Assembly (NCBI GenBank): GCA_016187225.1
Contig: JACPKC010000010.1
Coordinates: 67,541 to 131,540 of the forward strand
Origin: Candidatus Berkelbacteria bacterium
GTDB taxonomy: Bacteria; Patescibacteriota; UBA1384; JACPKC01
DNA: 64,000 bases
Reading direction: 5' to 3'
A model generated the notes under the pieces. That model searched no databases, had not been told where the DNA came from, and saw only the letters and a program-made list of their open reading frames with translations. Made by a program: the position numbers and the translations under genes. Positions 56,281-62,281 of this stretch are shown here, piece by piece (positions within the stretch are counted from its first letter, which is position 1; the number at the start of each line of letters is the position of its first letter).

Positions 56281-56308
56281 AAACCAGTGGAGGGCCGCTG
56301 GTTTTTTT
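56281..56308 (+). terminator. Intrinsic terminator after cysS
   Basis: Stem accagtgg/ccgctggt (one G-U pair), loop aggg, followed by a run of 7 T. Confidence 0.7.
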
Positions 56309-56461
56309 GTTCTTTCTCGCGTTCTGACTAGGAGCCGCGGAGAGTTGTCGGAGAGCGTTGCTCAAAGACAGTGCCCCTCCTTCCCGGCTGCCCCTCGGGT
56401 CTGGTTCCAGCTTGCTGGCGCCGGCCTGGTCAGAACATGGGGAAGAATAAAGAGGAAGCTA

Positions 56462-59434
56462 ATGTCAGAAAATCACGAGCAATCGAGAGCTAATCCAACG
56501 CCTGAAGGTTCGCATCAAGTTGAGAGTCAGGCAATTTCGCATATCCAAAATGCAATTCCTGAATATCAGCAGAATACGCCAAGTTTCGTAGCGTACAACT
56601 CGCACACTACTCAATCTATTGCTTCTGTTCGCGCTCAAATTGCAAACTACACTGAAAAACATCGCTTGAGTCAGGAAGCGCTTGCTATCCCGCGCGCGAG
56701 CATGCTTGGCAAAATTAAACAATCGCTCACGGTTCCCGCCACACCCGAACACCCAACTCGACTCCAGACTTTTTCCTCAAAGTTTCGAGAGTTTTGGCAC
56801 AAATCAAGCACGCGGTGGGCGCGTTTCGGCGCTGGCGCCGTTGCGACCGGTACAGCCTTCGTGGGCGTTGCCACAGCTAATCCGGTTTTAATTGGTCTTG
56901 GTTTAAGTGGCCGAGTCGCGCTTTCTGGAGCGGGCGCTTTCGCCACCTCTCAAACTTCTATGGAGGGCCGCGATTTGCGCCGTGAAACTAACACCAGCGA
57001 AAAACTCTCACCAATTCGTTGGCTAAAGGGTATCTTTAATAAAAACGCGCTTGCTTTAACTCCTCGAGAGCTTCAATCGATGCAAGTTGAGGAAAGGCAG
57101 GAGCGTTTAGGCAAAACTCTTGCAACGGCCCGAGCAATGGGCGCCGGGAATGTTTTTGATGTTACCAGCCAGCCAACGGCTCTTGAGCAACTCGTCACTT
57201 ATTCTCTGCATACCACGCGCCGGGTTGAACAAGTGCGCCAGGCGCTTCAGAATCGTTTAGAGAGAACTAAATCGAAAGATGCCGGAGTTCAAGCGCAGGC
57301 GCTTCAAAAGTTTGATCAATACAAACTCAACGCAACTCTAAATCGAATTCATATTCACCGATCAAAGTTTTTTGATAATCAAGAAGCCAAGATCGAGCGT
57401 GAAAATTTTGTTCAAGCGGTGGAAAATCATGCAGTCAACAATTTGGTTGAGGCTAAGCAGACTGCTAAAAAGCGCACCTGGATTGCCGCCGCATGGGGCG
57501 CGGGTGCGGCTTTGGTAACGGGATTAACGGGTTTAAAACGCATTGAAACGGCTGAACTTTCCTCCAATTACGGCGAAGGTGTTGGGCCGGCGCTCAAACG
57601 TCTAGTCGAAGGAATTAAGAACATTCCGGGCAATCTAAAAGCGATGGCTGAACGCATCTACGACGATTATTTGCGGCCGACGCCAGAAGTGACGGTTCCC
57701 CCTGCCAGTATTTCTTCTACCGTTCCTGAAGTCATTGGCAGTTACGCTTATCAAAAATCACTCTTGCAAGCCATCGAGAAGGCGCGTGAAACTGGCACGA
57801 ATGCGCCAATTTGGCAAGCGCTCACTGATCTTAAGAAGCAGGGAATTGTTTTAAGCGATGTCTTGACAGCAGACAATAAGAACGAACAGGGTCTCTCTTT
57901 CATTGATTACCTCAAGTTAAACGTTGATCGTTTTCAATCGCCAGAGGAACAGCCGGCGTTGCACAAGCTACTTTCCAGTCAGATCGATGCTCATGGCATC
58001 AGTTCAAGCTATGTCAATGAAAGTCATATCAACTACGCCAACGCGCGCGGTATCAGCACAACTCTTCACGGCAAAAAACTTGAAGCGATGTTCGATAGTC
58101 ATGGCCGTGTGGCGGATTTAGAACTTGGCGGCGTCAATCGTCCGGATCTAATTGAATATATCTCAACTAGCGATGGCCGCTTGTGCTTTGATGAAGTTGC
58201 TTTTAGCGCCGATCACCCGATGCCGGAAGTTGCGCGTCGAAATCCTTTTGCTTTGCCGCAACTGGTTCAAGATGAAATGGTACAGGCAACCGGTAAATTG
58301 CCAGCCACCGACGTTATTGAGCAGCCACAACCGATCGATGCTTTTATTGGGGCGCATAAAGGCGTTAAATACTATGAATATAACTTTGGTGATCATGAGC
58401 TAGTGACTTTCACGCAACCGAGTGGAACATTTGAAGTTTGGGAAAAAGTTGATCTAGGCGTGCGCGGAGTCGGCATTCAACCGGCGGCCGAATTTAGGGA
58501 AATTTTTCAGGGCGCGGAACTGCCAAAGCCAGATTATGGCGTTGAGTATCAGGGCGAGTATCAGGTTTCATTTGAGAATGACTTTGGCGGTCCGATCACG
58601 GCCGAGCGAGTTGCTGGTTTCAGTCAAGAAGAGTTAGCGCACTTCAAGAAAGTGGCCGCCGATCGAGAATCGATCACTCGGTTCTTGAGTCGGCACAGTA
58701 TTGAGAGCCAAAATTTCTTTGTGAATGCGGAATTAGTTAATAGCAAGAATGCGGCTGATGGTACCTGGACAACGTTCTATAATCCAAACGCCCAGTTTGG
58801 TAGCCCCGATACCGGTGTAAAGATTCGTTTCGACGAAGTTGGTCAGGTACAAGAAGTCAAAATGGCCCACATTCCAGTGAACGTTGAGGAAACCCGTCGC
58901 CTCGATGCCTATGTGAGCGAAATGGCCCGTCAGGCGGAGCAGAGTGGTACTGGCGTGAACACTGCCGAAACCGCACGGCTCGATGATGCAGTTCGCGCAC
59001 TGGCTCGCGGAGATCAGGCCAAAGCCACAGTTACTCCAGTTGCTTCGTTTGTAACGAACTCAATGGTGAATACATCGGTTCTGGATGCGCGACCTGAAGT
59101 TGTAGCCCCGCCTATTCAACAAGATGTTATCCATGAGCCAGTAGTAAAGGTTCCAGCGCATACTGATTTTCAAACGTCGATAATGTCGCCTGCGATAGAG
59201 CAGGTTCAGACTCAAAATGAACTTCCTCGAATCGATCTCGCGCCTGAAATTGCGCAACCAGAAGCAATCACTTCAAGCGAAGTACCATTTATGCAAGTCA
59301 TTCCTGAATCGGTTAACGAGACATCTCAAGCGCCGCGCTTGCCTGTAATTTCAGAAAATGTTGAACCGGCTGGATCGGTAGGAGAGAGCGGAGTTTTGCC
59401 GGTGATTCAAGTTGATTCCGAACTCGAAAAATAA
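56462..59434 (+). CDS. Large hypothetical membrane-associated protein (about 990 aa)
   Basis: AGAGGA SD before ATG 56462. Two Gly/Ala-rich hydrophobic segments. Pro/Glu/Val-rich C-terminal tail. No family recognised. Confidence 0.6.
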   Translation: MSENHEQSRANPTPEGSHQVESQAISHIQNAIPEYQQNTPSFVAYNSHTTQSIASVRAQIANYTEKHRLSQEALAIPRASMLGKIKQSLTVPATPEHPTRLQTFSSKFREFWHKSSTRWARFGAGAVATGTAFVGVATANPVLIGLGLSGRVALSGAGAFATSQTSMEGRDLRRETNTSEKLSPIRWLKGIFNKNALALTPRELQSMQVEERQERLGKTLATARAMGAGNVFDVTSQPTALEQLVTYSLHTTRRVEQVRQALQNRLERTKSKDAGVQAQALQKFDQYKLNATLNRIHIHRSKFFDNQEAKIERENFVQAVENHAVNNLVEAKQTAKKRTWIAAAWGAGAALVTGLTGLKRIETAELSSNYGEGVGPALKRLVEGIKNIPGNLKAMAERIYDDYLRPTPEVTVPPASISSTVPEVIGSYAYQKSLLQAIEKARETGTNAPIWQALTDLKKQGIVLSDVLTADNKNEQGLSFIDYLKLNVDRFQSPEEQPALHKLLSSQIDAHGISSSYVNESHINYANARGISTTLHGKKLEAMFDSHGRVADLELGGVNRPDLIEYISTSDGRLCFDEVAFSADHPMPEVARRNPFALPQLVQDEMVQATGKLPATDVIEQPQPIDAFIGAHKGVKYYEYNFGDHELVTFTQPSGTFEVWEKVDLGVRGVGIQPAAEFREIFQGAELPKPDYGVEYQGEYQVSFENDFGGPITAERVAGFSQEELAHFKKVAADRESITRFLSRHSIESQNFFVNAELVNSKNAADGTWTTFYNPNAQFGSPDTGVKIRFDEVGQVQEVKMAHIPVNVEETRRLDAYVSEMARQAEQSGTGVNTAETARLDDAVRALARGDQAKATVTPVASFVTNSMVNTSVLDARPEVVAPPIQQDVIHEPVVKVPAHTDFQTSIMSPAIEQVQTQNELPRIDLAPEIAQPEAITSSEVPFMQVIPESVNETSQAPRLPVISENVEPAGSVGESGVLPVIQVDSELEK

Positions 59435-59540
59435 TCTTTGAGAGTCTTAGAGCTTTTCACTTTGTGTGTAAAGCTTGATAGGCGTTCAAAGCGGAACGTT
59501 AAAAATTTAGAAAAAATAAGAAGGAAGGGGGTACTCAAAG

Positions 59541-61329: not shown

Positions 61330-61399
61330 GTATCAATTGAGGGCGTGCGCTGGTCGAAGCGGGCGAGAGTGCAAATATCGGAAAGGTGGTGAATAAACT

Positions 61400-62230
61400 A
61401 TGCAAAAATCTATCGCAATCGTTGCGTTTGCCTTGATGGTGACAGCTGGATCCTCAAGTGTATTCGCGGCGACCGTGCAAAATAACAACAGCTCTACGAG
61501 TCAGAGCCAGAACACTAACGCCGTTACAACGGTTGTTAATACTGGCAGTGGCTCCGCGGCTGGTTCAAGTAGTTCGGCGAGCGCCCAGGATTCGTCAACG
61601 AATCAATCGAACGAGAGGCAATCAACTTCGACTTCGCAAAGTTCGGGCACTGCGACTACAGGTTTGGTGCAAAATAACAATGTTAGCACCAGTCAAAGCC
61701 AGAACGTAAACGCCACCACAACGGTTGTTAACACCGGCAGTGGGAATGTGAGCGGCTCGGCGAGCGCCAGTGGCGGTCAAGCGTCAGAAACAACGCAAAG
61801 CAACTTTGCTTCTGGAAACAGCCAAAATCGGACCGAAAATAACAACAGTTCGATTAGCCAAAGCCAGAACGTGAATTGCGGCACAACCGTTGTCAATACC
61901 TCATCAGGTGATGCCTCTGGTGCGTGTGCGGCGGCAGGTAGCCAAACGGCAACTACGACACAGTCGAACACAACCGAACAGACTCAAACGAAAAAGAATG
62001 AGACCAAGATTGAACAAGCCCAATCAGTGGCACAAGCAACTTCAGTGGCTGGTGTTCCAACCACAACCACTCAAGTCCCGCCGGTTACAACCAAAACCGA
62101 GCTTCCGAAAGAGCTCCTGAAGACGGGTGCAAATACGGTTGCTCTCGCGCTTGGTAGCGCAGTGATCTCAGCCGGTGGCGCAGCATTCGCTCGTCGCAAG
62201 CAGATGGTCGCAGATCTCATCGTTGGCTAA
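61400..62230 (+). CDS. Secreted Q/N/S/T-rich protein with three 45-46-aa repeats and a sortase-signal-like C-terminus
   Basis: Signal peptide ...SSSVFA. Repeats VQNNNSSTSQSQNTNAVTTVVNTGSG..., VQNNNVSTSQSQNVNATTTVVNTGSG..., ENNNSSISQSQNVNCGTTVVNTSSG.... Tail is LLKTGAN + TM + ARRKQ. Confidence 0.7.
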   Translation: MQKSIAIVAFALMVTAGSSSVFAATVQNNNSSTSQSQNTNAVTTVVNTGSGSAAGSSSSASAQDSSTNQSNERQSTSTSQSSGTATTGLVQNNNVSTSQSQNVNATTTVVNTGSGNVSGSASASGGQASETTQSNFASGNSQNRTENNNSSISQSQNVNCGTTVVNTSSGDASGACAAAGSQTATTTQSNTTEQTQTKKNETKIEQAQSVAQATSVAGVPTTTTQVPPVTTKTELPKELLKTGANTVALALGSAVISAGGAAFARRKQMVADLIVG

Positions 62231-62255
62231 TGCTAACGGTATGTTTTAAGGGGCC

Positions 62256-62281
62256 AAAACGACGCGGAAACGCGTCGTTTT
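62256..62281 (+). terminator. Intrinsic terminator
   Basis: Perfect 11-bp stem aaaacgacgcg/cgcgtcgtttt with a GAAA loop. The 3' arm ends in TTTT. Confidence 0.7.

Follow-up and report, generated by a model that had tools for sequence, protein, structure and literature searches.

A candidate surface locus between cysS and prfB in a Candidatus Berkelbacteria genome, with a pair of repeat proteins conserved in one relative

Gene content of the locus

The locus considered here lies in a 64-kb window, meaning the whole stretch of 64,000 nucleotides that was analysed, from a metagenome-assembled genome of Candidatus Berkelbacteria, which belongs to the Candidate Phyla Radiation (CPR, or Patescibacteria). 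The same DNA was assembled identically and independently from two sequencing runs. Between cysS (55008-56225) and prfB (62322-63305, plus strand, MBI2590039.1), four genes, here called P1 to P4, follow one another on the plus strand: P1 (56462-59434, 990 aa, MBI2590035.1), P2 (59541-60455, 304 aa), P3 (60461-61237, 258 aa), and P4 (61400-62230, 276 aa). The first three correspond to the NCBI proteins MBI2590035.1 to MBI2590037.1, in which P2 is entered as a 284-aa version belonging to the same 90% cluster, and a gap of 5 nt separates P2 from P3. The attention below is centered on P3 and P4, which share a repeat and recur as neighbors in a related genome, and on a structured RNA candidate that precedes P1.

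An earlier note on this DNA had described four same-strand genes of these lengths, enclosed by two hairpin terminators and flanked by core translation genes. The genes, as open reading frames (ORFs), and both flanks were borne out, and the two outer terminators were confirmed by folding. The upstream one, the intrinsic terminator of cysS, consists of a 12-bp hairpin and a U-run (56279-56311, plus strand; hairpin at 56279-56306, -16.3 kcal/mol, z -3.4), while the one after P4, AAAACGACGCG-GAAA-CGCGTCGTTTT (62256-62281, plus strand, -21.9 kcal/mol, z -4.0), was missed by the consensus scan that had picked up the first, because its U-run is absorbed into the stem. The outline of the proteins given in that note also agreed with what was found: two hydrophobic segments, weak and Gly/Ala-rich, and a V/P/E-rich tail in P1; a long hydrophobic N-terminus in P2; a signal peptide, a polyproline linker, and one repeat unit in P3; and a signal peptide, three repeats, and a tail resembling a sorting signal in P4. 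The note could place none of the four in a known family, and the searches made here likewise yielded no assignment, with no match in Pfam, NCBIfam, PHROGs, PADLOC, or PDB sequences. Three features had been overlooked, namely a hairpin between P3 and P4, the anomalous third-position composition of P2 and P3, and the conserved structured RNA candidate.

The repeat proteins P3 and P4

P4 begins with the signal peptide MQKSIAIVAFALMVTAGSSSVFA, followed by ATVQ, with a Kyte-Doolittle hydropathy (KD) of 2.02 over aa 5-23; on sequence inspection, this agrees with the Sec signal expected of LPXTG substrates. Three repeat units of 47-49 aa follow, encoded at nt 61469-61615, 61661-61807, and 61826-61972. 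The C-terminus is composed of the motif ELLKTG (LLKTG at nt 62114-62128), a hydrophobic stretch, RRKQ, and a 9-aa tail. The hydrophobic segment with its basic tail, ANTVALALGSAVISAGGAAFA-RRKQ (KD 1.71), has the form expected after a sorting motif and is conserved in the relative described below.

P3 presents a signal-peptide-like N-terminus, a domain of ~90 aa ending in CGNL, the polyproline linker RIPPPPPVRIPPPSPPKPPPLIP (nt 60794-60871), a spacer, and, at the C-terminus, a single repeat unit (nt 61082-61228). This C-terminus aligned directly with the second repeat of P4, at 47-48% identity and an E value of 1e-8.

In total, eight units could be aligned without gaps over 49 columns, corresponding to three per P4 protein in two genomes and one per P3-type protein. 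Thirteen columns were invariant, mostly N or Q (N5 N6 N7 Q12 N15 V23 N24 T25 G28 Q40 T44 Q46 N48), and the consensus reads xxVQNNNSSTSQAQNVNxTNVVVNTGSGDAxGSxSAAGxQxAxTNQSNx. A pair of Cys residues, 16 residues apart, was present in three of the eight units. Tandem Repeats Finder detected nothing, and the repeats are thus not recent DNA duplications. The repeat had no match in Pfam, or in PDB by repeat-profile search, and a scan of viral contigs with the repeat profile returned nothing. This N/Q/S/T-rich unit of 47-49 aa is a new repeat, probably with a beta structure.

Conservation in a related genome

When 1.84 billion representative proteins were scanned exhaustively by HMMER with P4 as the query, a single relative emerged, P0006 (153 aa, 49% identity, E 1e-22). 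In such a search, a protein with one repeat stays below significance, reaching just ~43 bits against P4. P0006 is encoded on a 6.4 kb ENA metagenome contig with 3x coverage, hereafter L083, in which the gene order is cysS, four small ORFs, P0006, prfB, ybaB, and pth, with the same flanks as in the window. Using tblastn, it was observed that L083 in fact encodes a full-length P4 orthologue at 3381-4199, with three repeats, reconstructed across two frameshifts, one of which falls at a homopolymer run. The proteins encoded by cysS, ybaB, and prfB are 57-71% identical between the two loci, and P4 is 51% identical. The two genomes are thus distant relatives, and the conservation of P4 between them comes close to that of cysS and ybaB.

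The most informative difference between the two P4 proteins concerns the sorting motif. Where the window reads ELLKTG, the orthologue has the canonical ELPKTG, its C-terminus being ELPKTG-ANTMALAGLASALAGGVAFARRKQ and its reconstructed tail reading TDLPNELPKTG-ANTMALAGLASALAGGVAFARRKQQLAAELILG by tblastn. This LPXTG motif is the best evidence that P4 may be a sortase-type substrate, and, judged by its signals, P4 does have the appearance of a surface protein anchored in the sortase manner. The sorting-signal models also hit the tail of P4, though weakly (NPXTG, E 0.044; LPXTG_anchor, E 0.19).

A P3-type ORF was also found in L083, at 2541-3203, just upstream of the P4 orthologue, and it is probably fused by a frameshift with the frame at 2249-2572. 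It reproduces the layout of P3: the N-terminus is hydrophobic, the domain behind it ends in CGNL, the linker (IPQPVPVPTPQ) is rich in Pro, and one repeat stands at the extreme C-terminus. The similarity between the repeats of the two proteins was significant after composition correction (E 0.001). Two word-index searches proved uninformative on homologues of P3 elsewhere. First, a search with P2 and P3 concatenated recovered not even the queries, probably because it was swamped by polyproline words. Second, when the polyproline linker was left out, P3 still failed to recover itself.

Genes of the P3 and P4 types are therefore adjacent in both genomes, in equal order and at an equal chromosomal position. 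The locus had previously been described as inserted between cysS and prfB, and an insertion is not demonstrable: the relative carries its own version at the equal position, and the locus must therefore predate the split of the two genomes. Of 80 other prfB loci, only one had cysS within 10 kb of prfB; these contigs were mostly from Firmicutes, and the single Berkelbacteria locus among them (L009) begins inside prfB.

Hairpins and the structured RNA candidate

All three hairpins of the locus are conserved in position. The cysS terminator has its counterpart at 982-1009 of L083, and the terminator after P4 at 4221-4250. The third is a terminator-like hairpin between P3 and P4, CCCCGAGC-UUCG-GCUCGGGG, followed by a weak T-run (61272-61301, plus strand; hairpin at 61272-61291, -18.1 kcal/mol). 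Its equivalent in L083 (hairpin at 3250-3273, with a T-run to 3283) differs by one compensatory change, from C:G to A:U. This hairpin suggests that P3 and P4 are transcribed separately or to different extents.

Between the cysS terminator and P1 lies a conserved candidate for a structured RNA, ~125 nt long (56319-56441, plus strand). It shares 76% nucleotide identity with the corresponding segment of L083 (about 1037-1160, aligned over 1040-1159), as against 69% for prfB, the best-conserved gene. In both genomes it folds into a closing stem of 12-14 bp around three hairpins, with plus-strand energies of -62.6 kcal/mol (z -3.1) in the window and -62.2 kcal/mol (z -2.7) in L083, while the minus strand gave a z of 0.06. 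The central block, TGCCCCTCCTTCCCRGCTGCCCC, is nearly invariant. Conservation at the peptide level was rejected as an explanation, since ORFs read this block in different frames in the two genomes. RNAalifold assigned 42 pairs, seven of them with compensatory changes and none broken, and controls with a slid partner gave no compensatory changes; this test is partly circular, as it compares two sequences only and the structure was derived from both.

The element had no match in Rfam at E<=1 (window 54000-64000, and L083), and it is neither a tRNA nor a tmRNA. A covariance model detected the element nowhere else in the window and in none of 22 other loci, and a 20-mer taken from the element, TGCCCCTCCTTCCCNGCTGCC, gave only four chance matches in JGI metagenome contigs, all of them in unrelated high-GC contigs. 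The ribosome-binding site of P1 is unpaired in the minimum-free-energy fold. The element, which stands at the head of the locus, could be a leader, a riboswitch, or a small RNA, and it may regulate the genes that follow.

A promoter-like site, TTGACA-17-TAGATT with an extended TG (56222-56250, plus strand), is present upstream of these features. It is a consensus match only and overlaps the stop codon of cysS, and a counterpart, TTGACT-17-TAGACT, occupies the equal place in L083 (918-946). The order of promoter-like site, terminator, and structured RNA is unusual and was found in both genomes.

The upstream genes P1 and P2

P1 starts with an ATG placed behind the ribosome-binding site AAGAGGAAG; a longer ORF with a TTG start overlaps the conserved RNA-like element. 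The N-terminus of the protein is polar, and beyond it come two Gly/Ala-rich segments of weak hydrophobicity (aa 126-144, KD 1.52, and aa 340-358, KD 1.37), a C-terminal region of ~600 aa, and a V/P/E-rich tail comprising the last 140 aa. In P2, a hydrophobic stretch of ~33 residues at the N-terminus precedes a part that is predicted to be beta-rich, at low confidence (AlphaFold2 (AF2), predicted local distance difference test (pLDDT) 50).

No homologue of P1 was found by word-index search among 5.8 billion protein clusters, nor was one found there for P2 with a query that left out the polyproline linker; these negatives are meaningful, since each query recovered itself, P2 recovering nothing else. 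PDB sequence searches with P1 and P2 gave no match either. A weak PHROG match to a minor tail protein (E 0.028) was dropped, as both tblastn of P1 against phage genomes and the repeat-profile scan of viral contigs were empty.

In L083, P1 has no counterpart and P2 no detectable one (shuffle z <=1.4). Two frames precede the P3-like gene there, a (1286-1894, with a signal peptide) and b (1810-2226), and neither showed similarity to P1 or P2 (Smith-Waterman shuffle z <=0.3). Frames a and b together may be a positional analogue of P2, in view of their similar combined length and N-terminal hydrophobic segment, and homology is not demonstrable. By these comparisons, P1 and P2 remain genome-specific orphans.

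The locus is also heterogeneous in base composition. The G+C content at third codon positions (GC3) is 0.44 in P1, 0.67 in P2, 0.74 in P3, and 0.51 in P4, whereas all other ORFs of at least 250 aa in the window fall between 0.41 and 0.53, leaving aside two overlapping ORFs inside the P2-P3 tract. In L083, the genes between the RNA element and P4 have a GC3 of 0.40-0.50, against 0.28-0.31 for cysS, prfB, ybaB, and P4. GC3 is thus raised by 0.1-0.25 over the genomic background in both genomes (window 59541-61237; L083 1286-3203), with P4 and the flanks at background. Since the counterparts in L083 are raised as well, the shift is old and shared and does not reflect a recent insertion in one genome. 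Its source could be, among others, an ancestral foreign origin or a GC bias that accompanies recombination in a variable surface locus. Minus-strand coding was rejected for the long antisense ORFs that span P2 and P3: such ORFs commonly arise where GC3 is high, and it is the genes on the plus strand that show ribosome-binding sites, signal sequences, and homology.

Function and origin of the locus

We read the region, with a probability of roughly 0.5, as a fast-evolving surface locus kept at a fixed position between cysS and prfB-ybaB-pth, whose core is the P3-P4 pair, and not as a single four-part machine. Judged from the two loci, the conserved unit is the P3-P4 pair together with the upstream RNA and not the four genes, and the pair would plausibly form a functional unit on the cell surface.

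From these features we infer the following mechanism. P4 would be exported by Sec, after which a sortase whose gene lies elsewhere in the genome would probably attach it to the wall through the LPXTG-type C-terminal signal; at the minimum, the C-terminal hydrophobic segment would keep it in the membrane. It would thereby display three copies of the N/Q/S/T-rich repeat. P3 would be secreted, and the most economical mechanism for its retention is docking on P4 by beta stacking of repeat on repeat, in such a way that the N-terminal domain of P3 would be presented at the surface on a polyproline stalk, as an adhesin or a host-contact module. P1 and P2 would be genome-specific membrane proteins of the variable upstream part, in which L083 has different genes.

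The closest known counterparts of P4 are the sortase-anchored LPXTG proteins of monoderms, such as MSCRAMM-type and serine-rich repeat adhesins. P4 resembles them in the signal peptide, the repetitive low-complexity exposed region, and the C-terminal pentapeptide (LPKTG in the orthologue) with a hydrophobic stretch and then a basic tail behind it. It differs from them in the motif LLKTG, in a repeat that belongs to no known family, in the 9-10 conserved residues after RRKQ, and in having no sortase nearby. Over half of the CPR genomes encode a sortase, and the CPR is enriched in a family of MdbA-like disulfide oxidoreductases (PMC6744442), so that both the anchor of P4 and the Cys pairs of the repeat are plausible. 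On its sequence features, P4 would best be classed among the sortase-type anchored surface proteins, as a new member with a novel repeat.

Several observations weigh against this reading. First, the motif in the window is LLKTG and not LPXTG, the Leu codon being CTG, and P4 scored 12.5 bits (E 0.19) against the LPXTG_anchor model TIGR01167, below its cut-off of 15.9; with the NPXTG model the score was 14.1 bits (E 0.044), below the cut-off of 23.5. Second, no sortase was found in the 64-kb window, either as a TLxTC motif in ORFs of at least 120 aa or among the 30 ORFs scanned with Pfam. Third, the comparison rests on one relative, whose assembly is of low coverage and frameshifted, and the N-terminal domain of P3 was not significantly similar to that of its counterpart there (E 1.5, composition-corrected). 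Fourth, the AF2 models are unreliable (pLDDT 50 for P2 and 38 for P4) and too poor to back a beta-repeat fold or docking. Finally, the raised GC3 of P2 and P3 could mean that they are of foreign origin and functionally unrelated to P4.

This last point, carried further, leads to the alternative that four unrelated orphan genes lie side by side, with P2 and P3 acquired recently by horizontal transfer and with no collective function. The P2 and P3 values far outside the window range of GC3, the singleton status of P1 and P2 among the 5.8 billion clusters, and the presence in the window of five or more further large ORFs that match nothing in Pfam would all be expected in that case. Against it, a specific repeat is common to P3 and P4, genes like them are neighbors in both genomes, and the counterparts in L083 share the raised GC3. 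We regard this alternative as unlikely, although less so than those that follow.

A second alternative holds that P3 and P4 are subunits of a functional amyloid or of a beta-solenoid fiber, comparable to chaplins and curli, in which P4 would nucleate and tether the fiber and P3 would be a second subunit. The invariant N/Q positions could form a ladder, the cores alternate polar and hydrophobic residues (VVVNTGSG), each unit may carry a Cys pair, and AF2 places beta hairpins on each repeat core of P4, though with a pLDDT below 50, and thus only as a hint. The combination of an anchored protein with several repeats and an unanchored protein with a single unit of ~40-50 aa, with a Cys pair in some units, mirrors the long anchored (ChpA-C) and short secreted (ChpD-H) chaplins of Streptomyces. 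However, there is no sequence similarity to the chaplins, with no Pfam chaplin domain in P3 or P4 at E<=1, the repeat is polar (N/Q/S/T) and not hydrophobic, and P3 has an additional N-terminal domain and polyproline linker, a large non-repeat part unlike that of a fiber subunit. A similar balance applies to curli (CsgA/CsgB) and to FapC of Pseudomonas, which also have imperfect repeats with conserved Asn/Gln, separated by linkers in FapC as the three repeats are in P4. However, P3 and P4 contain no Pfam curlin repeat (PF07012), the comparison of the repeat profile with E. coli CsgA by hhalign gave a probability of 0.07 (with a CsgA sequence entered by hand), dedicated outer-membrane secretion genes are absent, and the organism is presumably monoderm. 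There is likewise no PDB match, and the proposal has neither experimental nor confident structural support; we hold it to be quite improbable.

The earlier note had seen in the four genes the layout of a self-contained system for a surface appendage or for adhesion, with P1 as a large membrane component, P2 as a small one, P3 as an accessory subunit, and P4 as the major anchored subunit; on this view all four would be co-transcribed between the outer terminators. Part of this proposal survives: P4 looks anchored, its orthologue having LPKTG, and P3 and P4 share a repeat and recur together. The membership of P1 and P2 is not supported. The genes do lie on a single strand with short gaps, of 5 nt between P2 and P3, every protein has a hydrophobic or export signal, the block is bracketed by the outer terminators, and in L083 a frame of ~316 aa with a signal peptide (a and b together) precedes the P3-like gene at the equivalent position. 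However, P1 is absent from L083, and the a, b, and c ORFs there are unlike P1 and P2; P3 and P4 have a conserved terminator-like hairpin between them; GC3 divides the host-like P1 and P4 from the atypical P2 and P3; and the locus lacks genes for a sortase, an NTPase, an usher, or any other assembly enzyme. The check suggested at the time, co-occurrence and conserved order in related genomes, could be made in one relative, L083, which kept the P3-P4 pair in order and yielded no homologues of P1 or P2. Sortase-assembled pili of the Spa type are similar in being encoded by a cluster of secreted proteins, one of which has an LPXTG-type signal; they differ in that P1-P4 have no CnaB or Ig-like pilin domains and no pilin motif, and in that the locus has no class C sortase. 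We hold a single four-gene system to be slightly less probable still than a fiber of P3 and P4. Least probable of all is the most elaborate version, in which the N/Q ladder would build a new wall-tethered beta-solenoid or amyloid-like fiber of the CPR, nucleated by P4 and capped or decorated by P3 with an adhesive head, with a new riboswitch-like RNA at the 5' end switching the whole locus.

The prevailing view is that CPR bacteria live attached to the cells of a host, and, to our knowledge, almost nothing is known about their surface molecules beyond type IV pili. Under the preferred reading of a variable surface locus with a P3-P4 core, the pair, a wall-anchored repeat protein and its secreted partner, would be a candidate attachment module of one Berkelbacteria lineage, and the RNA upstream would offer a candidate for a new regulatory motif, each seen so far in two genomes only. 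As it stands, the locus is one more case of the lineage-specific surface orphans that abound in the CPR, and not a new kind of machine.

Neighboring genes

The prfB gene is a single ORF in both genomes, encoding 327-331 aa (window 62322-63305, plus strand; L083 4306-5301), and begins ~40 nt after the terminator of P4. In the window, neither an upstream frame nor a CTTTGAC shift site was visible, and release factor 2 thus seems, from the sequence, to be made here independently of the usual programmed +1 frameshift.

Further ORFs of considerable size with no Pfam match were found at 20517-22826 (minus strand), 25646-26668 (minus strand), 42285-42905 (plus strand), and 43645-44778 (plus strand). 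Orphan genes are thus frequent in this genome, which makes the locus less surprising.

The genuine appendage machinery of the window is a complete type IV pilus cluster (31108-43492, plus strand), located 13 kb upstream of the locus. It encodes PilN, PilO, PilB (34643-37153), PilT, and PilC, as well as five N-methyl pilins and a prepilin peptidase (40479-41273), and is headed by a secreted protein of 668 aa with no Pfam match (31108-33114). Other envelope proteins are encoded nearby, including a 549-aa PKD-domain protein (28894-30546, minus strand) and a class A penicillin-binding protein with C-terminal Big_7/fn3-like domains (14709-17525, minus strand).

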